Source: an uncultured virus (IMG/VR IMGVR_UViG_3300027820_000030)
Taxonomy: Duplodnaviria > Heunggongvirae > Uroviricota > Caudoviricetes
DNA length: 64,000 bases
IMG/VR virus record: IMGVR_UViG_3300027820_000030
Direction: 5' to 3' (one strand)
Shown: positions 341 to 40,616 of the stretch, piece after piece
How the letters are laid out: each line of letters starts with the position of its first letter
Position numbering within the stretch: position 1 is the stretch's first letter
Position numbers and translations under genes: made by a program
Notes under the pieces: model-generated
Told to the model about the DNA's origin: nothing
Databases searched by the model: none
The model's input: only the letters and a program-made list of their open reading frames with translations

Positions 341-606
341 ATATGGAGCCGTTTAATTTTTGCATACAATGGATGGTGTACGATTATTTGCCAACCCTGA
401 AAACCGGAGACTTCCTACCTGGTCAACTTTGCATGCCCGATAGGATAGGCGTTGAGCGAAAGACGTATCGAGAAGTGTTACGCGTTCTGGATTTCCATGG
501 AGTTATAAGTGTCAAGCATGGCAAACCCACAAAGTTCATAAGCCTTAACAAGCCTGGACTGCTGTACGTCATGGAGCGTAAAGGCTTAACTGGTCAAACC
601 ACATAA
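337..606 (+). CDS. Stand-alone GntR/FadR-type winged-HTH protein
   Basis: IGVERKTYREVL...GVISVKHGKPTKF aligns with E. coli FadR IGVTRTTLREVL...GWLTIQHGKPTKV; no C-terminal effector domain. Confidence 0.8.
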   Translation: MNMEPFNFCIQWMVYDYLPTLKTGDFLPGQLCMPDRIGVERKTYREVLRVLDFHGVISVKHGKPTKFISLNKPGLLYVMERKGLTGQTT

Positions 607-626
607 TCGAAAAATGGTGGTATATT
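591..626 (+). promoter_or_regulatory. TGGTCAAACCA box + 19 bp + TATATT (-10) promoter
   Basis: Same motif and spacing at 6 loci. Confidence 0.75.
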
Positions 627-674
627 AACCACACTAACAACACCGCAGCAGTATCGCGGATAACGGAGATACTC

Positions 675-851
675 ATGCGTAGAAGAAATATAGAGGCACC
701 TTTTGTACAAATTAGCAAGAATGCTAAGATTTTTGAGTGCGGCATTTTGGTCGCTATTGTTCTTACTGTTTTTGCCTTTGCTGTTTGCTCTGTCGGGCCA
801 ATGATTATTGGTGATTCACTACCGGAAGCAACCAAGGCAATCACAGAATAG
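675..851 (+). CDS. 58-aa single-TM membrane peptide (not in ORF track)
   Basis: GGAG RBS; copy at 41135-41311 differs mostly at synonymous positions in this frame. Confidence 0.7.
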   Translation: MRRRNIEAPFVQISKNAKIFECGILVAIVLTVFAFAVCSVGPMIIGDSLPEATKAITE

Positions 852-858
852 TTTCAAC

Positions 859-931
859 GCCACCGGCAGTCACGCATAATTTAACTGTTAGCGCAGTCGC
901 GATGTGTGGCTACCTCAAACCGGTGGCTCCA
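859..931 (+). ncRNA. 73-nt structured RNA with acceptor-like stem and 3' NCCA
   Basis: GCCACCGG/CCGGTGGC-T-CCA closing stem, inner stem AGTCACGCAT/ATGTGTGGCT; conserved at 41319-41391. Confidence 0.5.
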
Positions 932-945
932 TTTTTGGAGGGAAT

Positions 946-1569
946 ATGATTCACAGCGTAGAAGACAAAACACAAAAAGAACTTGTCGAGATTGTCAAGA
1001 TTCAGATGGAGGAATACGAGAAGTTATTAAAGACTGAAAAGCAAACCGGAGCAATGCTGAACGAAGCGCTGGAGGCTCTCAAAGCAGCAGAGCGTGAGCG
1101 GGATGATTTGGAGAAACGACTATCAATTTACGAAAGTAAGGATAATCAATATGCGAATAAATTAAAAAGAATGCTGAAACTGCAAGCGCAGCTACACAAA
1201 AAGCAAGGGGCCGAGTCTCTTGGAGTGTTATTTGATAGCGCATTGTCAGAGATTGAAGCGTTAGAAAAGCGCGAAAAAGCAGTAGATATAGAACGGTATG
1301 TATTATCTTACTGCCTAAATTTCATTAAAGATTTCGCAACCCATGATTCTGAGAGCAAAGACGCTGCTTTTTTACGACTGAAAAACACTATTAATGACAG
1401 CCATGTCAGAGCTAATGAGCTCTTAAACAAATTCGCCATTGAGCAGCAGATTAAAGGAGCAAAAGCAGCAGGAAGCAAGTTAATTCAAAGTCATGAAGGA
1501 CAAAAGAAGCAATGGTTTGATGAAGTCTTTATTGGTCAACTACGCCAACAACTAAACGGGGGTGAGTGA
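946..1569 (+). CDS. Coiled-coil hypothetical protein
   Basis: GGAGG RBS before ATG 946; heptad-rich, charged. Confidence 0.7.
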   Translation: MIHSVEDKTQKELVEIVKIQMEEYEKLLKTEKQTGAMLNEALEALKAAERERDDLEKRLSIYESKDNQYANKLKRMLKLQAQLHKKQGAESLGVLFDSALSEIEALEKREKAVDIERYVLSYCLNFIKDFATHDSESKDAAFLRLKNTINDSHVRANELLNKFAIEQQIKGAKAAGSKLIQSHEGQKKQWFDEVFIGQLRQQLNGGE

Positions 1570-1691
1570 TGATTCTAACACGCTGGCTAAACGGCTGGAC
1601 AATCGAAAACATAGCAGCAAAGCACGGCATACGCGTTGAAACTGTTGTGGCTTATTTGCGGGTTCGTAGTGGGGAGTGGGTGAGCCGGTAA
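1569..1691 (+). CDS. 40-aa HTH-like micro-protein
   Basis: GWTIENIAAKHGIRVETVVAYL HTH pattern; homolog at 41406-41525. Confidence 0.55.
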   Translation: MILTRWLNGWTIENIAAKHGIRVETVVAYLRVRSGEWVSR

Positions 1692-1692
1692 T

Positions 1693-2133
1693 TTAACCGG
1701 CTTTACCACCAAACTTACCCATAGCCTTTTCAACGATAGCGCCCATGTACGGGGCTGAGAAGTAAAACGCCAATATCAGCATCATGGCCCCGTTCATCTG
1801 TTCAGCATAACCACCAATGACAGTTGCGCTTGCTCGCCATTGCTCAGGCTGTGAAGCCCATACAGCAACCAAATTCATTACCATGCTAAATACATACATA
1901 AACAGCCACACAAACGTAATCATGACCGCAAGAAGCCGCCTTGCTAGGTTTTGTCCGCTAGTGTTAGCCATCCAGTCTATTATCATCTTTCTGGCTTCTG
2001 CGCGCTCTGTGGCTGCGTCTGCCGCCTTCTCTTCGTCAGTATAGAATAGCGCGTCGCCTGCATCTCGAATCATCGAGACGCCTTCTTTTACGACATCAGA
2101 TGAACCAAACAATCTACCCCAGAAACTAGCCAT
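1693..2133 (-). CDS. Putative holin (3TM-type)
   Basis: Hydrophobic segments, adjacent to lysin. Confidence 0.6.
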   Translation of the reverse strand: MASFWGRLFGSSDVVKEGVSMIRDAGDALFYTDEEKAADAATERAEARKMIIDWMANTSGQNLARRLLAVMITFVWLFMYVFSMVMNLVAVWASQPEQWRASATVIGGYAEQMNGAMMLILAFYFSAPYMGAIVEKAMGKFGGKAG

Positions 2134-2853: not shown

Positions 2854-2876
2854 GGGATTTCAACTGTTTAAGCAAT

Positions 2877-3343: not shown

Positions 3344-3353
3344 AACTCAATCC

Positions 3354-5186: not shown

Positions 5187-5191
5187 TTCAC

Positions 5192-8738: not shown

Positions 8739-8747
8739 TACGGCTCC

Positions 8748-8870: not shown

Positions 8871-8871
8871 G

Positions 8872-10995: not shown

Positions 10996-11218
10996 TATCT
11001 AAACCCTTTTCAAACTCTTCTAACTTTTTAGCCATTCTGCCAAGCTGTTTTTTCTCGAACATGCCAGCCATTTCTGGCGGCCTGTTCATGGCAATGTAAG
11101 TAAAAATATCTTTAGGCGAACACTGCCAGTACTCGTTAGGCTTCATACCATAGGCGACGCACTCACGCAGCAGATTAGGCCATAAGTCACTGAGGTCTAC
11201 TGCGCTTGTGTCTTTCCC
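10995..11218 (-). CDS. gpT-like -1 frameshift extension of tail chaperone
   Basis: GGGAAAG at 11218-11212; -1 frame is open to TAA 10997-10995 and contains GMKPNEYWQCSPKDI. Confidence 0.85.
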
Positions 11219-11538
11219 TCGTCTGACTGCTCACCTTCCCACGTTGGACAAAGGGCTGTCAGAATGTCGCTAAATGCACTTGTCACCTTGGCTGTATTAT
11301 CCAAGCTGTTGAGCGTATCCCAAATATCCATGGGGTCGACATCAACGCCGCCTTTAGCCAAGATAAGACTAACCAGCTTAGAGCCTTTGGCGTAGTCAGG
11401 AATCTCACCTTTAAAGATATCGCGAGCCAATAAAAAAGGGCTACCCATTTCGTCGGTGATGTCCTGCGCTAAATCAATAGTCACAGGAACCTCGACTTTA
11501 TTCTCACCCCAAGTCAGCTTGATTTTGCGATAGCTCAT
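11197..11538 (-). CDS. Tail assembly chaperone (gpG-like)
   Basis: Between tube and tape measure; ends with G GGA AAG slippery site. Confidence 0.85.
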   Translation of the reverse strand: MSYRKIKLTWGENKVEVPVTIDLAQDITDEMGSPFLLARDIFKGEIPDYAKGSKLVSLILAKGGVDVDPMDIWDTLNSLDNTAKVTSAFSDILTALCPTWEGEQSDEGKTQAQ

Positions 11539-11539
11539 A

Positions 11540-11956
11540 TTAAGCCACCGGGTCGGTAAATGTAGCCGCGCCAGTAGATGACATTGAAAGACTGAACTGC
11601 ATCAATTCACCAACTGAGCCTGAATCTTCAAAGCTGTCTAAGAAGAAATCGCCGCTAATCACTGAGCCGCTTGTTCCTGCGTCGTCAGCAGTACAGGTGA
11701 GCACTACAGCGTAAGCCTGTGAGCCTGTTTGCATGGCTGACTTTAGCAGTGAGTTGTTTCGTGTTACACCGCTGCCGGTGAAAGAGATAGATTTCTGAGT
11801 CGGCGTTGCATGAGCGTCTGCCCATTCGCCTGAAGTGTCGCCTGAAGTGTCGCCGCGTGAATTTGAGATTGACAGCGATTGTTCCACTAAAACAACGGCA
11901 GTACCGCCAATCGTTCCGGTCCACTCGCGTTTGTGAATACCTGCACCTACTGACAT
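11540..11956 (-). CDS. Major tail tube protein
   Basis: 138 aa, Ser/Thr/Gly-rich beta protein, ISGDFFLDSFE...FSLSMSSTG; position. Confidence 0.8.
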   Translation of the reverse strand: MSVGAGIHKREWTGTIGGTAVVLVEQSLSISNSRGDTSGDTSGEWADAHATPTQKSISFTGSGVTRNNSLLKSAMQTGSQAYAVVLTCTADDAGTSGSVISGDFFLDSFEDSGSVGELMQFSLSMSSTGAATFTDPVA

Positions 11957-11985
11957 GGTTTAATCCTCATGGTTGATTTATAGTC

Positions 11986-12029
11986 ATTCTAACTGGTCAA
12001 ACCACTAGACGCAATATTTATGGTATTGT
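11986..12029. promoter_or_regulatory. Divergent promoters sharing a TGGTCAAACCA box (11994-12004)
   Basis: Minus: TTGCGT-17-TAGAAT with the box in the spacer; plus: box-19-TATTGT. Confidence 0.7.
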
Positions 12030-12049: not shown

Positions 12050-12331
12050 ATGAGCGGAACATTTACATTGGTGTCGGAGCAATTACCGCCTGAGCATGTG
12101 CCATTAATTGGCATCTCATTGGGGCCAAAACTTCACACAGTAATATTTGATGGGTGCAGGTTTATCGACAGAGCTAGCGGTAATGAGTTTGCCCTAGGCT
12201 GCATTATTGCTTGGTATGATATGAGCAAGCACGAAAAAAGCGACTGGCCTATTGTCGCTGGAAGTTTGCACGTTTGCGTAAACGCGCTTTTCTCAGCATT
12301 GGCTAACACTCAACATTCACAGAAAACCTAA
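12050..12331 (+). CDS. Hypothetical protein, antisense island in tail operon
   Basis: GGAGG RBS, own promoter. Confidence 0.65.
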   Translation: MSGTFTLVSEQLPPEHVPLIGISLGPKLHTVIFDGCRFIDRASGNEFALGCIIAWYDMSKHEKSDWPIVAGSLHVCVNALFSALANTQHSQKT

Positions 12332-13891: not shown

Positions 13892-15487
13892 TTAATTCAA
13901 CTTTCTGCATATCGGACTATCAAAATAGACTGTAACATCCGTAGCACCCGTATGAGTGCGCAAAACAAACTGTGGTTGAATAGTGGTTTCGCCCCCTGAT
14001 AGTGTGGAGACTACCATAGATGTTAGTATTCCTGTTATTTCCTGCCCCGCTGGTATTTCATCGGTGTAGTGATCCTCGTTAACTGTCTCGAAAATGTCGT
14101 TACCAATTTTCACAGTTACATTTGACAGCCCACTGTGACCAGCCACAACTTTAAATCTGCAAAATGCCACATAAACATCGCCAGACACACCAGTAATTGA
14201 TATGTCCTGCCTCATGTTTGTAACCTGCGTTTGCGAGCCAACATTACCGGATATAGTCACCGCCTGAGACTCTGTGCCATCACCGAAAGCATTAGAAACC
14301 TTTGACACTGTTACAGTAGCCCCTGAAACGTTACTGCCAACCGTCCAACTGTCCGCAACATTACCGCTAGTAGAGCCGCCGTCTGTTCCGGATGTTCCGG
14401 TTAATTGCGGATTAACAAAAAGATTATCGGATATTAGACCTTGCTGGTCGTTGGCGTTCTTGGCCGCTTTCAGGATTGCAGCACCTTGAGCAGAGCCTAA
14501 AACAACCGCACCCCACAAACTTAAATGAGTCCCGTCTGTGGTTGTGTCGTCATCCGCTGTAAAGTTTTCACCTGACTCAACATCAATGATTACCCCGTCA
14601 ATATCCAGTCCGCGCAAAGCTGCATTGTATGAACCCCTTAACGCCTTTTGCTCATCGGTCCATGGAAATGTTGCTGAGTCTGACTTCTCAGGCACGCCGT
14701 GGATAACCACAACGACTGCGCCGTAGTAAAATAAATTTCTTACAATCTCTTTAATATTTGAAATGTATTGCTCAACAGTTTCATTGGCGCTTACATCGTT
14801 TGTCCCAGCCTGCAAAGACACAACATCAGCAATGTTTGCGCCTATGGTAGTTATTCTCGCCAATATGTCAGAGGTTGTATCGCCGCCAACGCCCTGATTA
14901 TACCCATCTAGAAACCTTAACTTAGCGCCTACAGCGAGCTGAACGCCGTAGATTCTACTGAATGCCGCCGTGCTTGTTTCGCCCTCAGTGATAGAGTCCC
15001 CGACAAACATAATTGAACTGCCTGCATCCACCGCATTTACTGAGCCTCTGGTTACAGCGTTGCTAAAACTGGTAAAGGATAGGCCGCCCGTGCTAACAAC
15101 ACTCGCCACACCCCCAACCAACTGCACCTCGTATGGGCCGTCGGAGGCTTGGACTTTGATAGACTCGTCAGCGTCGAATGAATAATTCTTACCAGCGAAA
15201 TAGCCCGATGCAGTAACATCTGCGATAGTGTCAGCGGTAAAATACTGATAGGTTCTGTCTGCCAGCTTAACCAAGCAATCACCATCTGAGCTAACGATAG
15301 CCACAAAGCTATTATTAGGACATAGGCAGTTAATTGTCGCGTTACCAGGATTATTAAGCGTTACCGATGACAGGTCAAAATAACCAGCCTGTGACACGGT
15401 GTAGCGGTCATCGTCGGTTACGTATTTGAAATTATTGCCGGTTGTGGAGCGCGGCATTTGCTCTAGGTTTTTCAGATTAAAGGCCAT
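13892..15487 (-). CDS. Structural protein: tandem YxTxD..V..GYF anchor domains + SGNH hydrolase + beta-sandwich
   Basis: FVGDSITEG, GVGGDTT, QAGTND, DGTH; paralog of 21919-23379. Confidence 0.75.
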   Translation of the reverse strand: MAFNLKNLEQMPRSTTGNNFKYVTDDDRYTVSQAGYFDLSSVTLNNPGNATINCLCPNNSFVAIVSSDGDCLVKLADRTYQYFTADTIADVTASGYFAGKNYSFDADESIKVQASDGPYEVQLVGGVASVVSTGGLSFTSFSNAVTRGSVNAVDAGSSIMFVGDSITEGETSTAAFSRIYGVQLAVGAKLRFLDGYNQGVGGDTTSDILARITTIGANIADVVSLQAGTNDVSANETVEQYISNIKEIVRNLFYYGAVVVVIHGVPEKSDSATFPWTDEQKALRGSYNAALRGLDIDGVIIDVESGENFTADDDTTTDGTHLSLWGAVVLGSAQGAAILKAAKNANDQQGLISDNLFVNPQLTGTSGTDGGSTSGNVADSWTVGSNVSGATVTVSKVSNAFGDGTESQAVTISGNVGSQTQVTNMRQDISITGVSGDVYVAFCRFKVVAGHSGLSNVTVKIGNDIFETVNEDHYTDEIPAGQEITGILTSMVVSTLSGGETTIQPQFVLRTHTGATDVTVYFDSPICRKLN

Positions 15488-16110
15488 TACTGCCGCTCCT
15501 CCCATTCGAGTTGATAAAGAAATTCACTATCTGTCGTGCCGTTGATATTCGTAAACACCAGCAAGAAAGTATTCCCAGCCGCCACGCCTGACGCATTACC
15601 GCTTGCTGTGTAGCTTGAAGCCGCCCGACTACCGCCGCCCGATGTTGGCACAAGGTAGGACGTGCCTGTGCGCTTGGGTGCAGTTGTGCTGAATGCGGTT
15701 GCAATGCGTTTCTCAATCGTCACACCGCTTGTAGGGTGCGAATCCAAACCGCTAACAGATAGGTCGTTGTTAATCGGTGAAAGTTTGGTGCTTGTTACAT
15801 CTGCCCACGAGCCGCCACTGATAGCCTCACTGCCGGTGAACGGGTAAACAATGTATTTGCGCCCACCAGCCCAGCCATTAATCAGGCGCAACTGTAGTTT
15901 TAGCGGGTAAACAGTTGTAAACCGATAGATGAGAATATCAGTATCAGCAATCGCATCTGCGCCGCTACAGTCGTCAAAGAACTTGAACTGTAAGTTAGCC
16001 TCAAAGCTTGATTGCTGATTATCTACAGCAAAGCGCGCAGTGTTTTTGTTTTGCGTGGTCAGCAGAAAGTCTGCCCACGCATTGGGAATCAATCTATTCA
16101 GAATCGCCAT
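15487..16110 (-). CDS. Hypothetical virion protein
   Basis: ORF in head operon with translational coupling. Confidence 0.6.
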   Translation of the reverse strand: MAILNRLIPNAWADFLLTTQNKNTARFAVDNQQSSFEANLQFKFFDDCSGADAIADTDILIYRFTTVYPLKLQLRLINGWAGGRKYIVYPFTGSEAISGGSWADVTSTKLSPINNDLSVSGLDSHPTSGVTIEKRIATAFSTTAPKRTGTSYLVPTSGGGSRAASSYTASGNASGVAAGNTFLLVFTNINGTTDSEFLYQLEWEERQ

Positions 16111-16264
16111 TGTTCGCCACCTTCTTACGTCTCGTGCGCTTAGGCTTTGGTGCTTCTTCTGCCTCTTTAGGATTGAATTTAGCGTCGATGATTTTGTAAC
16201 CCTGAGCACGTAACTCTTTCTTGCGTTCAGGCGTTACAGGGTGAGGCTCGTAAATGACTTTCAT
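16094..16264 (-). CDS. Small conserved post-capsid protein (MKVIYEPHPVTPERK...)
   Basis: Motif I recognise as typically following this capsid family. Confidence 0.6.
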   Translation of the reverse strand: MKVIYEPHPVTPERKKELRAQGYKIIDAKFNPKEAEEAPKPKRTRRKKVANNGDSE

Positions 16265-16275
16265 AGCTGTCTCAC

Positions 16276-16311
16276 TGGTTAGACCACTTGTTACGTACAG
16301 TTTACTATAAT
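16276..16311 (+). promoter_or_regulatory. TGGTTAGACCA box + 19 bp + TATAAT
   Basis: Perfect -10, conserved spacing. Confidence 0.75.
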
Positions 16312-16343: not shown

Positions 16344-17493
16344 ATGATTGGAAAGGACGTGACTGTGACGATTGGCGACAAGGAGCTTGATTTTAATTTA
16401 AGCTCAGAGGTTATAGAGCCTATTGAATTTGAGTCGCAAGTAGCACAAGTAGGAAAGGGCTTCTCTTTTAACGCTGAAAGCACCGTCGAATTTTCTGGTA
16501 GCGCTGAGTTTTCTGGAGTTGTAACCTATGATGACGGCATGGTAATGAAATTAAAAGGAATGAAAAGCACCGGCCCAAATCATTATTTTTCTTACAACTT
16601 CAAATGCGGGAGCATTTCAGTTAAGCGATACATGAAAACCAAATCAAAGCAGCCGCGAACGATTGCTGTTTGGCGTGAAATTTAATTAGGCAAATTTGGA
16701 GAAGGGAATGGAAAAGAAGAGAAAAATGTTCAAAAAGAAAAAAATAAACATAAAGGTCGCCGAAGCTCAATCGCGCTACTTTTTTGCATTTGCTGTCGCT
16801 GACGCGATGTTCAAAAGCGAAGTATGTGCAGAGGCCGTTGCTCAAGGGGCGTTTTTTAGAACACTAGGCTACAAAGTGAGGGTTAAGTGATGTTTACATA
16901 CATAGCAGTAAACGGCGCGGTAGTCGAAAATAATTACGGTGGCGGTTATGGCGGTGAGTGGATAAGCCCAATCGGCGGGAGGGGCGGCTCGTCCAACTTC
17001 GATGATGGGCAAAATCTTAACGGGGGATCGTGGAAGGCAATAGATGTTCCGTACTGGGAAAGGCGCGTCAAGCAGATTGGTAAGGGCAAGCGGCACTATT
17101 TTGCCCTTAATGGCTGGTGGCATTACATTGAGATTGATGACGCTCTACCGCCGCTAGTTAGTTGGTACATTGGGAGGGTAAGTGATGATTAAATTAAACG
17201 CTATAGCAGCCATTGAACAATTCGAGAAATTCTGCGCTAGAGGTAGAGGTCACCTTGTAACAATAAAGAGGCCTGATGGAGAAAGTATCTGCCATCGCAC
17301 TAATATTTTTATTATGACATTGAGTTGCAATTACAAAGGGAAGTATTCCGATGGCTCAATTTTTGGAAGGGTTGAATTTAATGCAGACTCAGAAAAGGGT
17401 GAAATAAATAAAATATTGCACGAAACATTCTCTGACATGAATAAAAGGATGAATGAATTTGACACGCCTGAAAAGAAGGATGTGTTCACATAA
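16344..17493 (+). other. Antisense island of four small hypothetical ORFs (16344-16685, ~16708-16890, 16887-17192, 17182-17493)
   Basis: Coupled ORFs with RBSs, own promoter and terminator. Confidence 0.65.
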
Positions 17494-20795: not shown

Positions 20796-20824
20796 ATTTT
20801 AGCCACTGGTCTAACCACTTACAA
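20796..20824 (-). promoter_or_regulatory. Sigma70-like portal promoter TTGTAA-17-TAAAAT with box (20807-20817) in the spacer
   Basis: Read directly from the minus strand. Confidence 0.7.
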
Positions 20825-21919
20825 GCCCAATCGCTTAAATACTGTCGATTCCTCTTGCTCAAGCTCGTTTAATGTGATTGTGCGGCCTGTCATATCGGTG
20901 AATTTGGATAGCGATAATTTGCCATCGAGAAACAGTTTGGCCCTTGTGGTACCAAGCGATGATTCAACAAACCATCTAGGCTGTCTGCGTAACCATGCCT
21001 CGTGACTGGTGTCACTTCTAACCGTTGTCGGGTCGAATGCGTCTTTGTCACGCTTGCCTCTGTACTTTGGCTTACCATCCGTGCTGGCTTCTTTCTTCTC
21101 GAATGCTTCTTTTGCTGCCGGTCCTGATTTGCCGCCTATGGCAACCTGTTGGCCGGTTAACTCGAATCCTTCTGGACCGTAGATTAGTGTTGAGCGGCAG
21201 TTTGGGTGCAACGGAGGAATCGGTAACTTCGGGTCGTCAGCCTTAAATCGTTTCTTTGAGTTAGTCCGACAAATTAAACTAGTCCTGTTATCCCACACGG
21301 CGACAAATATCGCCTCCTGATAGTATTTAGGATGCGCAGATACGTTAGCCCGCCTTGCCTGCTGTACGTAATGCGTGAAAGCTGTTCTGGCCAATGACTC
21401 AGCGCGGGTTTTCAGTGTACCGTCAAACTCAGCACGTATATTCTTTAGCACCTGGTTGACTGTCTCGGCGCGTGAATAGCCCTGTCGAACCATTGACATA
21501 ATGCGTTGATTTCTTCCAGCGTTATTGCCAGTAATGAATTCATCCCAGAAACCAGCCTGCTTTGACTGCTCCATGACAATCATTTGCTCACCGATGAACG
21601 ATAGAATCTCATTCTTTGCCGGTGGCGTTAGCTCAGTGTTGCGCAGCATGTAACGCACCTCATACAATGCCGCCTCTTGCATATCCTTGGTGTAATCTGC
21701 CCAGCCTGAATTCAACTCGATAATGCGTTGTATGCGCTTCTCGATAGTCTCAAGCTGCTTTGGTGTGCGTGGCAAGCCGCCGTCGATGATGAGCAGCCTG
21801 ATTAGCCGGTACGTTTCCTCTAACCCTGGATAAACAGACGCGTTGATATACCCTGAATTTAACCTATCAAGGTATACCTCGTGCATTAATTGTGCGTCTA
21901 GGTTTATTGTGATTGTCAT
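20819..21919 (-). CDS. Head morphogenesis protein (SPP1 gp7 / MuF family)
   Basis: DNRTSLICR and PPLHPNCRS motifs. Confidence 0.9.
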   Translation of the reverse strand: MTITINLDAQLMHEVYLDRLNSGYINASVYPGLEETYRLIRLLIIDGGLPRTPKQLETIEKRIQRIIELNSGWADYTKDMQEAALYEVRYMLRNTELTPPAKNEILSFIGEQMIVMEQSKQAGFWDEFITGNNAGRNQRIMSMVRQGYSRAETVNQVLKNIRAEFDGTLKTRAESLARTAFTHYVQQARRANVSAHPKYYQEAIFVAVWDNRTSLICRTNSKKRFKADDPKLPIPPLHPNCRSTLIYGPEGFELTGQQVAIGGKSGPAAKEAFEKKEASTDGKPKYRGKRDKDAFDPTTVRSDTSHEAWLRRQPRWFVESSLGTTRAKLFLDGKLSLSKFTDMTGRTITLNELEQEESTVFKRLGL

Positions 21920-23379
21920 TAAAGCCCGTAATGAGTCAGGTTGAACATCTGCGCCTGAGCGATATTAATATCTACATCAAATGTGCCAGCGTCAGCGCTG
22001 ATTGCAAATCGCAAGCTTGAGACACCTTCAGGAACTTCAAGCTCAACACTAAGTGTTGTTGCGTCTACGCTTACCGCTGCCTGTCTCATCATGTATACGC
22101 GGTCAACTGAATTGACGGTAACATCGTATTGCACAAAAACACTAAGCTCACACGAGCCGCTGTTTATGGTATTACTAAACCGCATCACACACAGGTATGT
22201 GTCGCCCTCGGTAACGTTCCAACGGCTAGAGTTAATAAATAACTGGCTATTAACCCAGTTAACTTGCCATGTGTTACCTATTCCAAGCGACGTTTCTGCC
22301 AGTGACTGAGTATTTTGATTTCCGTTAGTGGCCCAATTATTCGGCAGCCCTGCGCCGTATGTTCCAGTTGTAAAGCACCCATTCGGATTCAATATAACAC
22401 TGTCAATTGTGTAATCGTCTATCCTTGGTAGTGGCGTATAGTACCTATTATTTAGGTAGTCATCTGCCAATTTGTAACCGGCTGTTTGTTCTGCTGCTGG
22501 GTCTGGATGGGTTCCATCCGATGATGCGCCACTAACCCATGCGCCGGTCGATGGGTCGGTTAACTCGTCCCATATGCCGAAGCACTTAATTCCTTTCTTC
22601 CTAGCTGTTACATAGTCGTATAAGTTAGCCTCAAAAACATACTCGCTACGTGCAGCTGTATCATGCGGAGGAGCCATAATCATAAGAGGCTCTGAACCTA
22701 TACCGGAAACATAATCCAAACATGTAGCAATGTTATCCCTATGCTCTATAAGCGTAACGCCTGCCGCATAATCATTGGTCGCCTCCATAACAGTTACGAG
22801 CGTGCCGTCTATATCGGACAGCCTTGCAATCATCTGGTTTGTGTTATTACCTCCAACGCCAGCATTAGTTTTAAAAACCACTGCGCCGCCACTGTTTCTA
22901 GCGAACCATGTGCCAAAATTATTGATAGCCTCACTGATTGAGTTGCCAAACACGCATAGCTGTTCCTGCCCACTGTTCAGTTTTGTTCTGACCAAACTAG
23001 CAACCCCGCCACTCGACTTAACTTCGTATTCGCCGTCTGCGGCCTGAACCTTGATAGAATCAATTGACGTAAATGAAACGCCTTTGCCCGAGAAATAACC
23101 AGAAGCCGTTACAGTTGCGATTGAATCAGGCGTTGAGTAATTCCAGATTCTAGGCGTTGCGTTATCGCACTTAGCCATTGCGGTAAGGATATCGCCGTCA
23201 GTGGTGATATATGCCAAGACGCTGCCGTTAGAGCAAACGCAATTGACAGTCGATAATTCTGAACTGAAAGTGTAGCCGGTGAAATAGGTGTGTTGTGATA
23301 CTTCTTCGACAGTGTCGTCTGTTACGTATCTAAATTTAACCGCCGAGATTCTGTCAACGTTCAATGCCTGGAATGCCAT
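21919..23379 (-). CDS. Structural protein: tandem anchor domains + SGNH hydrolase
   Basis: FGNSIS, GVGGNNT, EATND, DGTHP. Confidence 0.75.
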   Translation of the reverse strand: MAFQALNVDRISAVKFRYVTDDTVEEVSQHTYFTGYTFSSELSTVNCVCSNGSVLAYITTDGDILTAMAKCDNATPRIWNYSTPDSIATVTASGYFSGKGVSFTSIDSIKVQAADGEYEVKSSGGVASLVRTKLNSGQEQLCVFGNSISEAINNFGTWFARNSGGAVVFKTNAGVGGNNTNQMIARLSDIDGTLVTVMEATNDYAAGVTLIEHRDNIATCLDYVSGIGSEPLMIMAPPHDTAARSEYVFEANLYDYVTARKKGIKCFGIWDELTDPSTGAWVSGASSDGTHPDPAAEQTAGYKLADDYLNNRYYTPLPRIDDYTIDSVILNPNGCFTTGTYGAGLPNNWATNGNQNTQSLAETSLGIGNTWQVNWVNSQLFINSSRWNVTEGDTYLCVMRFSNTINSGSCELSVFVQYDVTVNSVDRVYMMRQAAVSVDATTLSVELEVPEGVSSLRFAISADAGTFDVDINIAQAQMFNLTHYGL

Positions 23380-27076: not shown

Positions 27077-27261
27077 TTCCTCGCACTCCAACTCTTCTTA
27101 GCCTTATGTATCGCCGTAAATGCTTCGATATTATCGTTAACCACGCGATACGCGTATTGCGGGTGACAACCTACCGCATTGGATAGTGACAGCACCGTGC
27201 GATGTTTACCCGTTTTAGCCTCTGCGATGATTGCAGGTGCTATTGTGCCGTATCGTTTCAT
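27073..27261 (-). CDS. Small HTH-like protein
   Basis: LSNAVGCHPQYAYRV; ATGA coupling. Confidence 0.5.
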   Translation of the reverse strand: MKRYGTIAPAIIAEAKTGKHRTVLSLSNAVGCHPQYAYRVVNDNIEAFTAIHKAKKSWSARK

Positions 27262-27573
27262 TACTCTTCCTCACAGTCCAGTATCTCGGCGCCGTACCAA
27301 TAACTGTCAACGTACTGTGCTTTCGCATGTGCCATTGCTTTGGCGTCATCCGCATTATCAGCCTCAACCCACAATTCATCTTCCATCATCATTTGTGTTT
27401 TTACTAAATATTTCATACCCTACCCCCATTCTCTGCGTATTTGCGCATAAGTTCTGGATGATTGAAAATCTCAAATGCTACCTTGTGCGTTTTCAACCCA
27501 GTTACCTGCGCGATTTTAATGTAACTCCGTGCGCCGTCTTGTAGTGCGGCGCTCACTTTACGGTAGTGTTTGT

Positions 27574-30895: not shown

Positions 30896-30960
30896 AGTAT
30901 GCCCTAATGAATTTCGTTTGCAAGTACTTTTCGTTATTATTTTATCTGGTCGTACCACTT
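30896..30960 (-). promoter_or_regulatory. Promoter TTGCAA-16-CATACT with AT-rich upstream element and FadR-like operator AAGTGGTACGACCAGAT
   Basis: Operator at 30944-30960. Confidence 0.6.
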
Positions 30961-34326: not shown

Positions 34327-34369
34327 GGTTTACCTCGTAAGGTTGTGGGACGCATCCCGTTGTTAGCGC

Positions 34370-34723: not shown

Positions 34724-36192
34724 AAACTAGCCTCTATTCTCTTAGCTTCTGCGTAGTCTTTTGGTCCAGGCTTCTTGCCTCCTCTGGCCATATAAACGTT
34801 GACTGCCCACCCACTGGCATTCTTCATGCCGCGCCGCTTGCCAAGCGCTATCAAGTCACGCAATCCGTTTGCCTGCCCCTGCTCCTGTCGGGCTCGTTTT
34901 CGCTCTGCCTGTACCGCTGCCATATCTACTTGCTCTAGCTCGCCCTCAACCTCGTTTAACTTGCGCTCTTTCTTCTCTACCGGAGCTCCGCACATTGGGC
35001 ATGCGTCAACACCAGACTTGAACACCGCGTAACACTGCCCGCACTGAGACACATTTACGTCTGGCTCGTCGTCTTTCTTTTTGCGTCTTTTTGGTTCATC
35101 TCCTGATAAAGACCATTCACGTTTTTCACACGGCAAACCATGTTTAACTATACATCCTGCATGGTCAAGTATGACAGCCGGGTTAGGCTTCTTACGCATA
35201 GCCCTGAACACCATCTGCAGGTATCGCGCAACAGACTGTGTAGGCCTAAGCAGTATGCAGCATTCAAGTGTACAGTCTCTGCCCACCTGCGCGGACAAAT
35301 CGAAACCCTCTATAACTAGTTCGCAATTACATAAGACCTTGTAGCGACCGTCAGCCAGCCCCATACAGGCATCTTTTATTTCGCCCTCCGTGCTTGTTCC
35401 GTCCACGTGTATAGCCGGCACGCCTGAATCATTGAAAGCTTGTGCAGTTTGCTTGCTGTGCTTAACGTTTACGCAATAACAGACTGTGCGCAGACCGTTA
35501 GCCAATTTTTTCCAGTGACTAACCGCGTCGCCTACAATTGATGGTTTAGACATAGCGCCGGCTAACTGGTCTTTGTTGTAGTCACCGCCGGCGTTTTTAA
35601 CGTCTGACAGGTCAGGGCTAACTGGGGTTGTGTAGGCGACGTAATTGGAAAGCCTACGTTGCTTTATAAGCCATGCAGTTGACTTAGCCTCTATCATTTC
35701 GTCAAATAAGTCACCTAGCGCTTTACCGTCAAGACGCTTAGGCGTTCCGGTTAGCCCTATAACCAAAGCGCCATTGTCGCGAGCCCAATTAATGACGGTC
35801 TCGAACATGTTGCCTTTAGCCAGATGCGCCTCGTCTATAAACATGATTCGAGGCGGTGCCAGTCTCTCAAGCCTGCTGTAAACAGTACCGATGGTGCCAA
35901 TCTGGACGGGTAGCTTTGATTGACGACGTCCACTAGTGATTAGGCCGTGTTCAATCTTGGCAGACCAGAAAGACTTATCGGTCTGACGTAGCAGGTTCTT
36001 TCTGTGAACCAAAAACCAAACGCTTGTATGCGGGTTTTTAGCTTGTGCCTCTTGCGTGATGTAGCCTGCAACCACGGTTTTCCCGAATGCTGGGCTGGCC
36101 ACGCCCAAAACAGATTTACACCCTTTGGCCACTGCCGCGCGTAAGTTGTGCACGAATTCAGCCTGGTCCTCATATAGCTGGAATTGGCTCAT
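34720..36192 (-). CDS. Superfamily II DNA helicase with zinc finger
   Basis: AFGKT, IDEAH, GLTGTP, RPTQS..YLQMVFR, CGQC..CPMC. Confidence 0.92.
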   Translation of the reverse strand: MSQFQLYEDQAEFVHNLRAAVAKGCKSVLGVASPAFGKTVVAGYITQEAQAKNPHTSVWFLVHRKNLLRQTDKSFWSAKIEHGLITSGRRQSKLPVQIGTIGTVYSRLERLAPPRIMFIDEAHLAKGNMFETVINWARDNGALVIGLTGTPKRLDGKALGDLFDEMIEAKSTAWLIKQRRLSNYVAYTTPVSPDLSDVKNAGGDYNKDQLAGAMSKPSIVGDAVSHWKKLANGLRTVCYCVNVKHSKQTAQAFNDSGVPAIHVDGTSTEGEIKDACMGLADGRYKVLCNCELVIEGFDLSAQVGRDCTLECCILLRPTQSVARYLQMVFRAMRKKPNPAVILDHAGCIVKHGLPCEKREWSLSGDEPKRRKKKDDEPDVNVSQCGQCYAVFKSGVDACPMCGAPVEKKERKLNEVEGELEQVDMAAVQAERKRARQEQGQANGLRDLIALGKRRGMKNASGWAVNVYMARGGKKPGPKDYAEAKRIEASL

Positions 36193-36362
36193 TGGTTGGC
36201 CTCCAGGTAGTCAGACAGCTTTTTTACTGTGACGTAACTAGGGTTAGGCGCCTTGCCTGTTTTCACTGCAGATATAAACTGCCGCGTCATTCCTACAGAC
36301 TTGGCAACAGCGCTTATATTGCGGTCACTTAGTCTCTGTTTTATTTCATCTAGTGTAAGCAT
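36189..36362 (-). CDS. Cro-like HTH protein, 57 aa (not in ORF track)
   Basis: MLTLDEIKQRLSDRNISAVAKSVGMTRQFISAVKTGKAPNPSYVTVKKLSDYL; coupled to helicase. Confidence 0.8.
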   Translation of the reverse strand: MLTLDEIKQRLSDRNISAVAKSVGMTRQFISAVKTGKAPNPSYVTVKKLSDYLEANQ

Positions 36363-36387
36363 TGTTTAACCTTTTTGTTATTAGGTG

Positions 36388-36421
36388 TTGACACAATAAA
36401 CCATAAAGCATAGGATTACAA
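36388..36421. promoter_or_regulatory. Overlapping divergent sigma70 promoters
   Basis: Plus TTGACA-17-TAGGAT; minus TTGTAA-17-TATTGT. Confidence 0.75.
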
Positions 36422-36465
36422 CCACTGGCTGACTTAGCCAGCAACAACCAAACGGGCTACAGAAC

Positions 36466-37323
36466 ATGATAGACGTTATTGATTACACCCAGCATGAGGG
36501 TGAACTGCCAGCAACATGCGCAGTTATTAACATGCCAAACAGTGCTTATCACACTCACCCGTCAATAAGCAAAAGCGGGTTAGATTTGATAAACCGCAGT
36601 ATCGCCCACTATGAGTACCGCACGCCGTTTGAACTTACGCGGCACATGGAGATAGGCACCGCAATACACGCCGCGCTTTTCGAGCACGAGCGATACAAGT
36701 CTGAGTATATTCTTTTGCCTAACGTGAAAGACCGACGAGCTAGCGAGTACAAGCAGGCTGTGAAAGCCGCAGGCACTAGCGAGTTGGTTTTAGTTGGTCA
36801 TGAGTCAGACAAGGTAAACGGCATGTACCAAAGCGTTAGCCTAAACAAAGAAGCTATGAAGCTTCTAAGCGAAGGATACCCTGAGCTGTCAGTGTTTGCC
36901 GTATGTCAAGCAACCGGATTGCATCTTCGCTGCCGTTTCGACTTCCTAACGCGCGGCGGAGTCGCTGTTGACCTAAAGAAAACGCAAGACGTTCGCTATG
37001 ACAAGTTCCAGCGCTCTATAGGGTCTTACCGTTATCACGTACAGGATGCGTTTTACATGTATGTAGCGGCACTTGCCGGAATCAACGTGAAAGAGTTCAA
37101 GTTTTTGGCAGTAGAAGAGCAACCGCCGCACTCCAACAAACTATACACGCTTGATGATGAAGCTAAAGCAGTGGGTCGCCGTGAATTTAACAGGGACTTA
37201 ACCGCATACGCTGAATTCAAGAAAGCCGGCGGAATTCCTGCAGGTCTTGTTCAGGAATCAGAGTTAATGAGCCTGCCAGTATGGGCGTTAGACGACGAAG
37301 CAGACGCGGAGTATCAACTATGA
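36466..37323 (+). CDS. RecE-like PD-(D/E)XK exonuclease
   Basis: ISKSGLD, GTAIHA, LRCRFD, VDLKKT, YHVQDAFY. Confidence 0.88.
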   Translation: MIDVIDYTQHEGELPATCAVINMPNSAYHTHPSISKSGLDLINRSIAHYEYRTPFELTRHMEIGTAIHAALFEHERYKSEYILLPNVKDRRASEYKQAVKAAGTSELVLVGHESDKVNGMYQSVSLNKEAMKLLSEGYPELSVFAVCQATGLHLRCRFDFLTRGGVAVDLKKTQDVRYDKFQRSIGSYRYHVQDAFYMYVAALAGINVKEFKFLAVEEQPPHSNKLYTLDDEAKAVGRREFNRDLTAYAEFKKAGGIPAGLVQESELMSLPVWALDDEADAEYQL

Positions 37324-37898: not shown

Positions 37899-37900
37899 TC

Positions 37901-38209: not shown

Positions 38210-38242
38210 TAAGGCAAGCCGGCTCAACAGGGCCGGCTCCAC

Positions 38243-38278
38243 TGGTCAAACCACCTTGGCGCGTAGAGATGGTATATT
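38243..38278 (+). promoter_or_regulatory. TGGTCAAACCA box + 19 bp + TATATT
   Basis: Follows a hairpin, precedes the pentapeptide gene. Confidence 0.75.
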
Positions 38279-38300
38279 GTAGGAAATGGAGGGGGATAAA

Positions 38301-38993
38301 ATGATTGAAATAAAAAACAGATTTACAGGGGGAATTATCCACAGTGGTGATTTCCAAAGCGTTAAAGAATGTTTGCTTGATGCTATTAAAAATGACGCAA
38401 ACCTACGGGGCGCAAACCTACGGGGCGCAGACCTACGGTACGCAAACCTAGAGGACGCAAACCTACGGGGCGCAGACCTACGGTACGCAAACCTAGAGGA
38501 CGCAAACCTACTGGGCGCAAACCTACTGGACGCAGACCTAGGGGGCGCAAACCTAGGGGGCGCAAACCTACGGTACGCAAACCTACGGTACGCAAACCTA
38601 GAGGACGCAAACCTACTGGGCGCAAACCTACTGGACGCAGACCTAGGGGGCGCAAACCTAGGGGGCGCAAACCTACGGTACGCAAACCTACGGGGCGCAG
38701 ACCTACGGTACGCAAACCTAGGGGACGCAGACCTACGTTGGTGTGCTGGCAATAAATGCGAAATCAAATCACTATGGTTTAGTGATGTATACCCAATAAC
38801 CTATACATCGGAATATATGCAAATTGGCTGTGAGCGTCACAAAATTGCCGATTGGTGGGAATTTGACGACAAGCGCATTTTAAAAATGGATGGTAAAACT
38901 GCATTGAAGTTTTGGCGGGAAAATAAAGATTTGATTAAGCAGATTGTTGACGCCAATCCAGCCAAGCCTACAGGCAAGGAGTCTGACAAATGA
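38301..38993 (+). CDS. Pentapeptide-repeat protein
   Basis: 23 A(N/D)Lxx repeats; C-terminal MQIGCERH..W domain. Confidence 0.92.
   Translation: MIEIKNRFTGGIIHSGDFQSVKECLLDAIKNDANLRGANLRGADLRYANLEDANLRGADLRYANLEDANLLGANLLDADLGGANLGGANLRYANLRYANLEDANLLGANLLDADLGGANLGGANLRYANLRGADLRYANLGDADLRWCAGNKCEIKSLWFSDVYPITYTSEYMQIGCERHKIADWWEFDDKRILKMDGKTALKFWRENKDLIKQIVDANPAKPTGKESDK
38397..38741 (+). repeat. 15-bp tandem repeat GCA(A/G)ACCTA-N6, 23 copies
   Basis: Invariant codons in every unit. Confidence 0.92.
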
Positions 38994-39597
38994 CAAAACA
39001 ACAACTACTAGCGCTGTTGCGTGAGGCGCTATCTGACTGTATTTGCAAGGGTATAAGCATTAACGAGTATATCAAAGAGGTAGAGCGCACAAACCACGTA
39101 GGTGATTTGGAGTTGCCGGCGCTTTCATCTGACACCCAATGCGAACATGAATATGTCGTTAGATATGACCACGGCACATGCAAAAAGTGCGGGTGGATAT
39201 TTACTGACGGCGGCTGGGGAACTGCTAAACGCATGTGGTTTAAAAGCCTTGATGATGCAAAGTTCTATAAGCAGCATGGTCGACTACCACAACCACCGGA
39301 GGGAGTATGAGTGAGTTAAAGCAAATGTTAAGTCTTCAATTAAGACTGGCGAGAAAGTCGGGGGCGAATGCTATGGCTGATTTACTTGGCAACTCGAAAA
39401 GAGAAATCGAGCGGCTAGAATCACAGGTTAGGCAAATGTCAGAGTTATGCTTGACGGTTGAGGAAGTAAATTCAATCAAAGCCGATGCTGTGCGTGAGGC
39501 TGCTAAAGAAATTAACTGGACTGCACTTACAAAGCCGCAGCAGGCAAAGGACGCGCTTGTTTATCTGGCGAACAAATTGGAGAAGGGCGAGTTATGA
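38990..39597 (+). other. Two small hypothetical ORFs (38990-39310, 39307-39597)
   Basis: ATGA-coupled ORFs. Confidence 0.65.
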
Positions 39598-39890
39598 AAA
39601 CCTGCGAATACCTGCGAAAGCGGATGCTGAATGAGTTGGTAACAATTCATGGCCCTAATTGCTGCGAGTACGCTGACATTGATGATGTAATCGAATTCAT
39701 CCTCAGCCGCGACAAAGACCTTGCTGTATCTGTTTCTGAGTTCGTAAGCGCAACAGGAAGTAAAATCAAGGCCGCCGAGAAGTTAGGATGCAGCCGAAAC
39801 ACGATTTTGCGCTATGAAGATGACACAGATTGCAAATACCACCACGTTTACAATGGCCGATTGTTTACGGCTAAGGGTAGCGCGCAGTGA
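39594..39890 (+). CDS. NinH-like HTH protein
   Basis: AAEKLGCSRNTILRY..D....HHVYNGRL. Confidence 0.65.
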   Translation: MKTCEYLRKRMLNELVTIHGPNCCEYADIDDVIEFILSRDKDLAVSVSEFVSATGSKIKAAEKLGCSRNTILRYEDDTDCKYHHVYNGRLFTAKGSAQ

Positions 39891-40066
39891 GTCAGGGTGT
39901 CTTATTCGGATACAGTGAAACATATTACGAGATACACGCGTATCTAATTGATGTCTGCTCGTATTCTAACGAGGCTGCACATGATTACATTTTAGAGGCT
40001 TGCCCGCATGTGCTGGCGCATGATTTTGTGCCAGCACCCGTTACAAGTTTGGAGTATGAAAAATGA
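39887..40066 (+). CDS. 59-aa hypothetical protein spanning the repeat start
   Basis: GTGA/ATGA coupled; its 3' part is duplicated at 1-158. Confidence 0.55.
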   Translation: MSQGVLFGYSETYYEIHAYLIDVCSYSNEAAHDYILEACPHVLAHDFVPAPVTSLEYEK

Positions 40067-40099
40067 CCAAAAACACAGGCAAAGCATCGTCGCCAGGAT
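39909..40099 (+). repeat. Direct repeat, copy 2
   Basis: Matches 1-191. Confidence 0.95.
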
Positions 40100-40219
40100 T
40101 AATCGCCTTGCTTGAGCGTAACGGCGTAAAACCAACTGGCGACAGCGATAAAGATTTAAAATTGGCCAAAAGGTTTATGCCTAAGCCATATAGGTAAGCA
40201 AAAAGTAAGGAGCGGATTC

Positions 40220-40615
40220 GTGATAGAAATAGTAAGAGGGACAACCGATTTAATATTTTACTTTGGCGAAGATGCAGCGGCAGCTGCTTACGCGTCAATA
40301 TGCCTGATAACCATTATGGCGCTAAAGGAAAATAAACTTCTAACAAAGGGAGCATTGCTGGCAGTATTGATTTTCCCGATTTACATTTATTTGACTCCGC
40401 TTTTGATAGGATTAATTTTGCTTATGTGCATCATTGCTTTTGGTTTTATGTTGGTTGACAAGCTTTGCGACAAGCCGGAGCTGGAAGAATTGCAGGATAT
40501 TAACTATTACTCTGAATTCAAAACAACAGTTGATCACGGCATGAAAGAGAAATTAAGGCAAAAGCGAAGAGAATCAAAACTGGTCAAACCACATAATCGA
40601 AAAATGGTGGTATAG
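40220..40615 (+). CDS. Membrane protein
   Basis: Hydrophobic segments, AAGGAG RBS. Confidence 0.6.
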   Translation: MIEIVRGTTDLIFYFGEDAAAAAYASICLITIMALKENKLLTKGALLAVLIFPIYIYLTPLLIGLILLMCIIAFGFMLVDKLCDKPELEELQDINYYSEFKTTVDHGMKEKLRQKRRESKLVKPHNRKMVV

Positions 40616-40616
40616 T
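40581..40616 (+). promoter_or_regulatory. TGGTCAAACCA box + 19 bp + TATAGT
   Basis: Homologous to 591-626. Confidence 0.75.

Follow-up and report, generated by a model that had tools for sequence, protein, structure and literature searches.

FadR-type operator boxes at a fixed distance from -10 elements: a candidate promoter class in uncultured phages

Genes and boxes in the window

The window, the whole 64,000-nucleotide stretch of an uncultured marine Caudoviricetes virus that was analysed (IMG/VR record IMGVR_UViG_3300027820_000030), combines two phages: phage A (∼39.9 kb) comes first, and a portion of phage B is joined to it within the record. No tRNA genes or Rfam families were found in the window, no close DNA relatives were found among isolated phages, and cultured relatives traced via the helicase reach 39% identity at best. 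Both phages carry a short palindromic box with the core TGGT-N3-ACCA and the oriented 14-mer ACTGGTCAAACCAC, and a gene for a small FadR-like protein, here called mini-FadR. An earlier note on this DNA had listed six cores, at 591, 11994, 16276, 28006 (minus strand), 38243, and 40581, each 19 bp ahead of a -10 hexamer. All six are present at these positions with that spacing, and the hexamers read, as given there, TATATT, TATTGT, TATAAT, TATAAT, TATATT, and TATAGT.

The mini-FadR gene of phage A (337-606, plus strand) encodes a FadR-type winged-helix protein of 89 aa that stands alone. The gene begins in an ATGA overlap with the ORF before it, and within its final codons lies the box of predicted promoter P1 (588-626, plus strand; box 589-602, ACTGGTCAAACCAC; TGG-extended -10 TATATT at 621-626). 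Downstream of P1 (675-1569, plus strand) come a gene for a predicted membrane protein of 58 aa (675-851) and an ORF of coiled-coil-like character, listed as 904-1569. Promoter P2 (11991-12029, plus strand; box 11992-12005; TGG-extended -10 TATTGT at 12024-12029) heads a single counter-oriented gene (12050-12331) within the tail-gene operon, and P3 (16273-16311, plus strand; variant box ACTGGTTAGACCAC at 16274-16287; -10 TATAAT at 16306-16311) heads four small counter-oriented ORFs (16344-17493). Promoter P4 (27981-28019, minus strand; box 28018-28005; -10 TATAAT at 27986-27981) opens the minus-strand operon, which begins with a gene at 27960-27574 and takes in NinX-like, methylase, terminase, head, and tail genes. 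Promoter P5 (38240-38278, plus strand; box 38241-38254; TGG-extended -10 TATATT at 38273-38278) heads genes for a pentapeptide-repeat protein, a NinH-like protein, and mini-FadR, the last at the end of the circular map.

Phage B has its own P1 (40578-40616, plus strand), which carries the 37-nt module of its phage A namesake with the -10 TATAGT at 40611-40616, sits behind an unrelated 131-aa ORF, and heads 40644-40814. The mini-FadR of phage B (P0036; 59192-59434, plus strand; 80 aa) was recognised by tblastn (44% identity over 48 aa) and by a purpose-built HMM (E = 4.5e-9). Upstream of it lies a canonical promoter, TTGACA (59127-59132)-N16-GATAAT (59149-59154), with no box. Another canonical promoter, TTGACA-17-TAGGAT (36388-36416, plus strand), serves the divergent early region and contrasts with the box class.

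Three further cores were absent from the earlier list (20807, 30947, and 52417), each without a -10 at 19-20 bp. The first two have the oriented flanks, and these boxes are kept in relatives: ACTGGTCTAACCAC (20805-20818, plus strand) lies between head-morphogenesis and portal genes, and TCTGGTCGTACCAC (30945-30958, plus strand) is kept in the related record G006 with a changed centre (CCT). The core at 52417 looks like a chance occurrence.

Frequency and geometry

The comparison with shuffled sequence that the earlier note had proposed was run, and both counts lie far above the shuffles. The pattern TGGTNNNACCA has 9 matches in the window against a mean of 0.88 in 100 shuffles, none of which reached 9, and the composite TGGT-N3-ACCA-N19-TAnnnT has 6 matches against a mean of 0.04 and a shuffle maximum of 1. 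These controls, for the core and for the composite pattern, rule out a chance origin of the motif. The 14-mer is exact at 5 sites and has one or two mismatches at 20805 and 16274.

The remaining elements of the promoters were also as previously described. There is no good -35, the best candidate at 16-18 bp spacing matching at most three of the six positions of TTGACA in all six promoters, and a Shine-Dalgarno sequence and start codon follow each site 21-49 nt past the -10, opening ORFs of 56-230 aa. The sites at 591 and 40581 are homologous, with an identical 37-nt module in common, and the other loci are independent, their spacers being unrelated; five promoters combine unrelated spacers with identical geometry. 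Four of the six hexamers are preceded by TGG and so qualify as extended -10 elements (TGn); the remaining two are perfect TATAAT.

Further IMG/VR phages carry the same class. TAnnnT stands 19-20 bp past the core at 18 of 28 sites across three records (G000, 6 of 9; G006, 4 of 6; G007, 8 of 13), and the other ten have no -10 at that distance. Among 52 oriented views, TAnnnT peaks at spacings of 19 (8) and 20 (8), against 0.76 expected per position. Three of the G007 boxes have a second -10 at 12 bp from the opposite side. A divergent promoter using the bottom-strand TTGACC of the box was rejected, there being no -10 at 16-18 bp in the flanks, and an alternative sigma factor was rejected because the -10 elements are of the sigma-70 type, in a comparison with consensus sequences only.

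Resemblance to FadR operators

The FadR consensus is given as aaCTGGTCnGACC(T/A)Gtt in PMC9329746, and the 17-bp palindrome AACTGGTCAAACCACAT fits it at 13 of 16 defined positions, bearing out the view that the box is a FadR-type operator sequence. All seven oriented boxes end in ACCAC where this consensus has ACC(T/A)G, so they are not plain FadR consensus sites. Many of the G007 boxes read AACTGGTnnnACCAGTT.

The earlier note had also stated that FadR acts near -40 at fabA. PMC3462791 places the activating site over the -40 region, and the published probes in Table 2 of PMC4537474 show the FadR core 21 bp before TATCCT (E. coli fabA), TATTGT (E. coli fabB), and TAATCT (Shewanella oneidensis fabA), where the -10 assignment is ours and not published. 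The phage promoters share this layout, with a FadR palindrome just ahead of the -10, always the same distance away and covering the -40 region, and a poor -35, except that the spacing is 19 bp in the window and 20 bp in G007. They differ in lying nearer to the TGGT/ACCA core consensus than the fabA/fabB sites, in having no FabR site in the spacer, and in being phage-borne, at 5-8 per genome, with a ligand-free FadR domain encoded by the phage. The best reading of these sequences is that the box promoters probably form a special class of sigma-70 promoters, with a FadR-type operator where the -35 would normally be.

A FadR relative reduced to its DNA-binding domain

A FadR-family protein, which the earlier note had put forward as the reader of the boxes, is indeed encoded by phage A. 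The product of ORF 337-606 matches the Pfam GntR family at E = 4.4e-4 and 20.3 bits, under the gathering cut-off of 27. Its six best matches among PDB sequences are all FadR (E ∼1e-5, residues 21-79 aligned). The AF2 model (pLDDT 86.5) has the order H-H-H-E-E plus a helix, and its top nine Foldseek matches are FadR chains. An N-terminal GntR-type winged helix-turn-helix is present, and the C-terminal FadR-type acyl-CoA-binding/dimerisation domain is absent from the protein of 89 aa. A homodimer prediction scored 0.02, giving no verdict. The four closest relatives are 85-101 aa long. Phage FadR-like proteins as a whole (74-101 aa) share the winged-helix reading head of the FadR subfamily, including its GV-R-T-REVL and HGKPTK segments, and lack its entire acyl-CoA-binding domain. 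Judged by sequence and predicted fold, the ORF 337-606 product is a DNA-binding-domain-only relative of FadR and not a full member. In the PDB sequence alignment it has L, E, and K in place of FadR R35, T44, and T46, which we take to be DNA-contacting residues.

A scan of viral contigs with the mini-FadR alignment found only one locus, L120, and a scan of metagenomes gave 79 loci, of which all 13 inspected were ordinary full-length GntR regulators. The sole match among isolated phages, Alteromonas phage P24, was discarded as a relative of the system, having just two cores, both inside coding regions. Aeromonas phage 62AhydR11PP, which has TerL in common, was likewise discarded, as its single core lies inside a coding sequence.

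Candidate readers of the boxes

The most informative relative is G007, an IMG/VR phage with direct terminal repeats that is rated 100% complete. Of its 13 boxes, 8 stand 19-20 bp ahead of a -10, and no GntR or mini-FadR gene was found in it (PF00392 over six frames, 0 matches; purpose-built HMM, best E 3.8; tblastn, none), nor was an HTH regulator common to it and phage A found at BLASTP E ≤ 1e-4. A box-rich genome without a FadR-like gene points to host FadR as the common reader, although G007 could encode a reader that went unrecognised. Relatives G001-G005 and G008 are near-identical mosaics and so provide no independent evidence of conservation. Taken together, the sequences and the model make it fairly probable that the boxes have two readers, host FadR and an acyl-CoA-blind mini-FadR of the phage, acting on sigma-70 promoters of the FadR-activated fabA type. 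That the boxes are bound, whether binding activates or represses, where transcription begins, and which host is involved are what we infer, the last only from relatives of TerL and coat protein.

If transcription starts 7 nt past the hexamer, the core would span about -42 to -32, with its centre near -37. A strong, often TGn-extended -10 follows it after 19 bp. A FadR-family winged-helix dimer on the box would most likely aid RNA polymerase in starting. Host FadR, the only common denominator with the box-rich relative that lacks a FadR-like gene, would render the promoters sensitive to long-chain acyl-CoA. The second putative reader, mini-FadR, has no acyl-CoA domain, and its gene closes the P5 operon, immediately ahead of P1. 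The protein would hold the boxes occupied under any lipid state and could affect the host fad and fab regulon as well. Because it is a DNA-binding domain only, the circuit may be partly uncoupled from fatty-acid status in phage A. The gene also lies behind a box promoter, P5, so that a role as activator would need prior read-through or basal expression.

Phage gene expression may thus depend on the host lipid sensor, or override it. The promoter interpretation of the earlier note stands in part: the consensus, the layout, and the encoded FadR-like protein support it, and its proposed tie to fatty-acid status is altered. A bolder generalisation, which we offer tentatively and consider possible rather than probable, is that a group of uncultured marine siphoviruses has placed most of its non-early transcription under host FadR. 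Host FadR would then turn on fabA-type phage promoters, and long-chain acyl-CoA would turn them off. Some of these phages would override it through a ligand-blind FadR DNA-binding domain that also locks the host fad and fab regulon, and in relatives such as G007 one box flanked by back-to-back -10 elements (at 20 bp and at 12 bp) would serve as a two-way switch for the structural genes and counter-oriented accessory cassettes.

Alternative explanations

The boxes might instead form a self-contained circuit read by mini-FadR alone, a middle or late activator in the position of a lambdoid Q gene, with host FadR and fatty acids uninvolved. The gene does follow a NinH-like gene and directly precedes P1, and the box of P4 heads the packaging and structural operon. 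The ACCAC ending departs from the FadR consensus flank in all oriented boxes, and the three altered positions in the reading head could denote a private specificity. Such a circuit would nevertheless leave 13 boxes in G007 with no mini-FadR gene and the visible part of phage B with its box P1 behind an unrelated gene. It would also place an activator gene behind one of its own promoters, and the box equals a proven fabA site in closeness to the FadR consensus. We regard a purely private circuit as unlikely.

Equally improbable in our estimate is that these are constitutive extended -10 promoters shut off by a FadR-type protein sitting over the -35 region, whether through negative autoregulation by mini-FadR or through silencing by host FadR until acyl-CoA rises. 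GntR-family regulators are mostly repressors, and the mini-FadR gene lies within an operon headed by a box (P5). Four of the six -10 elements are TGn-extended and could work unaided by an activator, a feature that repression accommodates just as well, and the other two are perfect TATAAT. The second -10 at 12 bp on the opposite side of three G007 boxes is in a position that suggests occlusion. Repression, however, does not explain why 18 sites in three records, about 15 of them non-homologous, keep their TAnnnT at a spacing constant to within 1 bp, and for FadR the known repressor sites overlap the transcription start and it is the activator sites that match the position of the box.

Very improbable is a reader outside the FadR family (a sigma variant, or a different DNA-binding protein of phage or host), or a box that is mainly a recombination boundary between modules: homology between mosaic relatives does begin exactly at the box 5′ edge in P1, P4, and P5, and several variant contigs join at 40578 (weakly, with sides of 22-37 letters), yet a boundary leaves the fixed distance to the -10 unexplained, and against another reader stand the fit to the published FadR consensus and fabA/fabB layout, the FadR-like protein encoded adjoining a box, the sigma-70 type of the -10 elements, and the lack of a regulator common to phage A and G007 at the BLASTP threshold given above. 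Activation through a FadR-type operator in place of the -35 remains the preferred reading.

Comparison with other phage promoter systems

Activator-dependent phage promoter classes are known, as is FadR control of bacterial lipid genes. T4 MotA boxes are asymmetric and centred at about -30, and their use depends on two phage proteins, MotA and AsiA. The earlier note's comparison with them is sound only as an analogy: both classes have a box in the place of the -35, held at a constant distance from a sigma-70 -10, but box sequence and position differ, the box described here is a palindrome of a host regulator family, and neither the PHROGs scan (95 ORFs) nor the Pfam scan (65 ORFs) gave a MotA- or AsiA-like annotation. 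Promoters activated by lambda CII or P22 C1 similarly have an activator site overlapping a poor -35. The sites of CII, a protein outside the GntR/FadR type, are direct repeats (TTGC-N6-TTGC). Stoperators of mycobacteriophage L5 resemble the boxes as short, oriented sites of one regulator that recur genome-wide, including in structural operons. They differ in being asymmetric, in acting as repressor sites, and in standing at no set distance from a -10, whereas most of the boxes described here are coupled to one. We know of no phage with a whole promoter class built on the FadR operator, or with a ligand-free FadR domain, and a full-text literature search for either found none.

Should the preferred reading hold, phage gene expression would be tied to the fatty-acid state of the host, and a small phage protein would have the capacity to fill all FadR sites of the cell. 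The 14-mer combined with a -10 19-20 bp downstream offers a practical means to locate and annotate promoters of related uncultured phages. Used without the -10, the 14-mer gave at least 119 loci in viral contigs, where, among the matches listed, most were chance or coding (e.g., a G-G-T-G-Q-T-T motif) and a minority came from relatives. In genome contigs it gave 39 matches, about the chance number, and one of these (nine loci were inspected) is an exact 14-mer that precedes an acyl-CoA dehydrogenase gene by ∼70 bp in a Colwelliaceae MAG.

Organization of the record

The IMG/VR record is 67,220 bases long, and the window covers its first 64,000. PHROGs and Pfam annotation recognizes two phages within it: a siphovirus, phage A (about 192 to 40,099), and part of a P22-like podovirus, phage B (about 40,100 to the end of the window). 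Blocks 1-2,525 and 39,909-43,164 are mutual mosaics with 88-99% identity. In public runs, phage A occurs alone on a 39,657-base contig that wraps around, and summed contig depth over the stretches specific to phage B is about ten times lower, or zero. An assembly join of two related phages is therefore the most likely origin of the record.

As annotated by PHROGs and Pfam, the minus strand of phage A between about 27,978 and 1,693 encodes the terminase, portal, head, tail, tape-measure, fibre, and lysis functions. A divergent early region lies around 36,362-36,466, with genes for a Cro-like HTH protein, helicase, VRR-NUC nuclease, and primase to the left and exonuclease and nin-like genes to the right. 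PHROGs scans of 95 ORFs and Pfam scans of 65 found neither an integrase nor a long CI-type repressor in phage A. Two large structural-operon proteins (13892-15505 and 21919-23379) bear GDSL/SGNH lipase-acylhydrolase domains according to PHROGs and Pfam; they may act on lipids or may simply deacetylate surface polysaccharide.

Promoter motif and spacing

The core TGGT-N3-ACCA (TGGTNNNACCA) occurs nine times in the window against 0.88 expected, a count reached by 0 of 100 shuffles, and the core with TAnnnT exactly 19 bp downstream matches six times against 0.04 expected from shuffles. An earlier note had described six such boxes at this fixed distance from a -10 hexamer; the same six sites, with the same hexamers, make up all of the composite matches, and both frequency and spacing stand well above those of shuffled sequence. 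Read in orientation, the motif is longer, ACTGGTCAAACCAC. Exact copies stand at plus-strand positions 589, 11992, 38241, and 40579 and at minus-strand position 28018, and variant boxes are ACTGGTTAGACCAC at 16274 and ACTGGTCTAACCAC at 20805.

TGG precedes four of the six hexamers and supplies the TGn of an extended -10 element; the remaining two are perfect TATAAT. Other features that the note had listed also hold on re-analysis: there is no good -35 element (the best candidate has at most 3 of 6 matches to TTGACA), each hexamer is followed within 21-49 nt by a Shine-Dalgarno sequence and start codon, and the spacers are unrelated to one another, save those at 591 and 40581, where the 37-nt module is identical. 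Flanks are also oriented at the cores 20807 and 30947, which relatives retain, but neither has a -10 element; the core at 52417 looks like chance.

By contrast, the early rightward promoter is canonical (TTGACA-17-TAGGAT, 36388-36416). Just 3′ of its -10 element is an inverted repeat, CTGGCT-N5-AGCCAG (36425-36445), which may be an operator of the 57-aa Cro-like HTH protein (36192-36362).

Boxes in related viruses

Six related records (G001-G005 and G008) are near-identical mosaics in which every box is kept. At three of the predicted promoters, P1 (591 and 40581), P4 (28006, minus strand), and P5 (38243), homology between lineages starts exactly at the 5′ edge of the box, and position 40578 is a joining point for several variant contigs of public runs, although these joins are weak, with short sides; thus, the promoter module behaves as a conserved island.

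Further, independent promoters come from two records that are less closely related. The first, G006 (29 kb, rated 78% complete), has six cores, four of them with TAnnnT at 19-20 bp. The second, G007, is rated complete (43,104 bases with direct terminal repeats), encodes a helicase 70% identical to that of phage A, and carries 13 cores against about 0.7 expected; TAnnnT lies at 19-20 bp in 8 of the 13, mostly TGn-extended, and most of these -10-coupled cores have a Shine-Dalgarno sequence and ORF downstream. When 52 oriented views from the three records (the present one, G006, and G007) were pooled, TAnnnT was found eight times at 19 bp and eight times at 20 bp, against 0.76 expected per position.

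The pooled views have a second TAnnnT peak at 12 bp (five cases), on the opposite side of some G007 boxes. Each of the G007 boxes at 18234, 27693, and 30421 sits between two back-to-back -10 elements, with a TGn-extended -10 element 20 bp away facing a counter-oriented small gene and, on the other side, TGcTATAAT or TGcTATACT 12 bp away facing structural genes. These three boxes may act as a two-way switch.

Resemblance to FadR operators and FadR-activated promoters

The E. coli FadR site is given in a review (PMC9329746) as a 17-bp palindrome, aaCTGGTCnGACC(T/A)Gtt. The phage box with its flanks, AACTGGTCAAACCACAT, matches this E. coli consensus at 13 of 16 defined positions, with a perfect left half. 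The likeness to a FadR-type operator that had been proposed for the box is upheld at the level of sequence, and the boxes are very probably bound by a FadR-family protein.

The same review places FadR repressor sites over the transcription start and activator sites upstream of -35. At E. coli fabA, PMC3462791 locates FadR as an activator over the -40 region and FabR over the -10, in agreement with the note's statement that FadR acts there from near -40. Gel-shift probes for E. coli fabA, E. coli fabB, and S. oneidensis fabA are printed in Table 2 of PMC4537474, and all three have an 11-bp FadR core, 21 nt, and then TAnnnT (TATCCT, TATTGT, and TAATCT). We infer that these hexamers are -10 elements, a reading that fits the fabA -40 statement. 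Apart from a shift of 1-2 bp, the phage promoters are thus laid out like known FadR-activated promoters.

The favoured reading is fabA-type activation: bound to the box, a FadR-family dimer would be centred near -37 or -38, where it could assist sigma-70 RNA polymerase at these promoters lacking a -35 element. The main rival is that the boxes are operators for a repressor, since an activator can be dispensable at extended -10 promoters. The spacing, however, is fixed within 1 bp across about 15 non-homologous promoters, and the layout matches the geometry of activator rather than repressor sites, so the effect is probably activation.

Phage-encoded FadR-like proteins

Phage A encodes a stand-alone FadR-like winged helix, mini-FadR (337-606, 89 aa), whose ORF has an ATGA overlap with the upstream ORF and ends inside box P1. 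Its Pfam GntR match is weak (E=4.4e-4, 20.3 bits, below the cut-off of 27), but against PDB sequences its best six matches are FadR of Vibrio and E. coli (E 8.6e-6 to 1.2e-5, residues 21-79). In an AlphaFold model (pLDDT 86.5) the elements are ordered as in a winged helix, with an additional helix at the C terminus, and the model's best nine Foldseek matches in the PDB are FadR chains (TM 0.62-0.70, about 30% identity). In alignment, equivalents of FadR R45, T47, R49, and H65-G66-K67-P68-T69-K70 are kept and R35, T44, and T46 are replaced, these being DNA-contact residues of FadR.

An exhaustive profile search with mini-FadR returned 35 proteins at E<=0.001. The four closest homologues (45-94% identity) are all 85-101 aa long, which makes mini-FadR a small family of stand-alone domains. 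A canonical TTGACA-N16-GATAAT promoter precedes the 80-aa copy of phage B (59192-59434). In Alteromonas phage P24, a stand-alone FadR-like winged helix of 74 aa (11035-11259) with a TRTT recognition segment adjoins the integrase region. No box enrichment was found in P24, so its protein may target host FadR sites. Together, these copies suggest that proteins of this type can also act purely on host sites.

Candidate readers of the boxes

In G007, Pfam found no GntR-type gene among 76 ORFs at E<=0.01, PF00392 had zero matches over six frames, and the mini-FadR family HMM, which recovers the proteins of phage A (E=2.6e-47), phage B (4.5e-9), and P24 (1.9e-12), gave a best E of only 3.8. G007 and phage A have no HTH regulator in common at BLASTP E<=1e-4. 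A host protein is therefore the simplest candidate for a shared reader, and host FadR is the one indicated by the operator-like sequence. The phages with the closest TerL and coat proteins infect Aeromonas, Pseudoalteromonas, Vibrio, Alteromonas, and Shewanella; for Vibrio and Shewanella, PMC4537474 documents FadR.

On balance, host FadR more likely than not takes part, and mini-FadR is likely to bind the same boxes. Because mini-FadR has no acyl-CoA domain, it could keep the boxes occupied once long-chain acyl-CoA releases host FadR; alternatively, it could compete with host FadR. A link between these promoters and fatty-acid status is therefore plausible, but one that phage A may deliberately bypass through mini-FadR.

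A scan of reference genomes for the 14-mer plus hexamer gave 39 matches, about the number expected by chance. Of nine inspected matches, one precedes an acyl-CoA dehydrogenase gene of a Colwelliaceae MAG by about 70 bp (N-terminal fragment against PDB 8pns, E=9e-19). On a Shewanella oncorhynchi contig, the exact 14-mer falls in an AT-rich intergenic spacer flanked by small ORFs whose Pfam matches, to type III secretion chaperone or needle-like families, are weak and below cut-off.

A full-text literature search found no report of FadR-box phage promoters or phage-encoded FadR domains; "FadR" text matches in the phage papers inspected proved to be the author name Eloe-Fadrosh. Activator-dependent phage promoters and co-option of host regulators are known, and the proposed FadR-box class would fall among these.

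Genes behind the predicted promoters

P4 heads an operon running into packaging and structural genes, and P5 heads one of pentapeptide-repeat and nin-like genes. Small genes converging on lysis genes follow both copies of P1, and P2 (11994) and P3 (16276) precede small cassettes opposed to the surrounding tail and head genes. Inside the P4 operon, about 480 bp (27092-27573) have no convincing minus-strand ORF of at least 80 aa, and no tRNA or Rfam family matched there. The first gene of the P5 operon encodes a pentapeptide-repeat protein (38286-38993, Pfam E=2.6e-39) and consists of about 20 tandem 15-nt units. On the minus strand, the reverse side of the P2 box (11956-12004) has TATAAA 11 bp away, facing the major tail gene, and that of the P3 box (16209-16286) has TATGAA 10 bp away, facing a 240-aa gene; both may serve the late operon as weak restart promoters.
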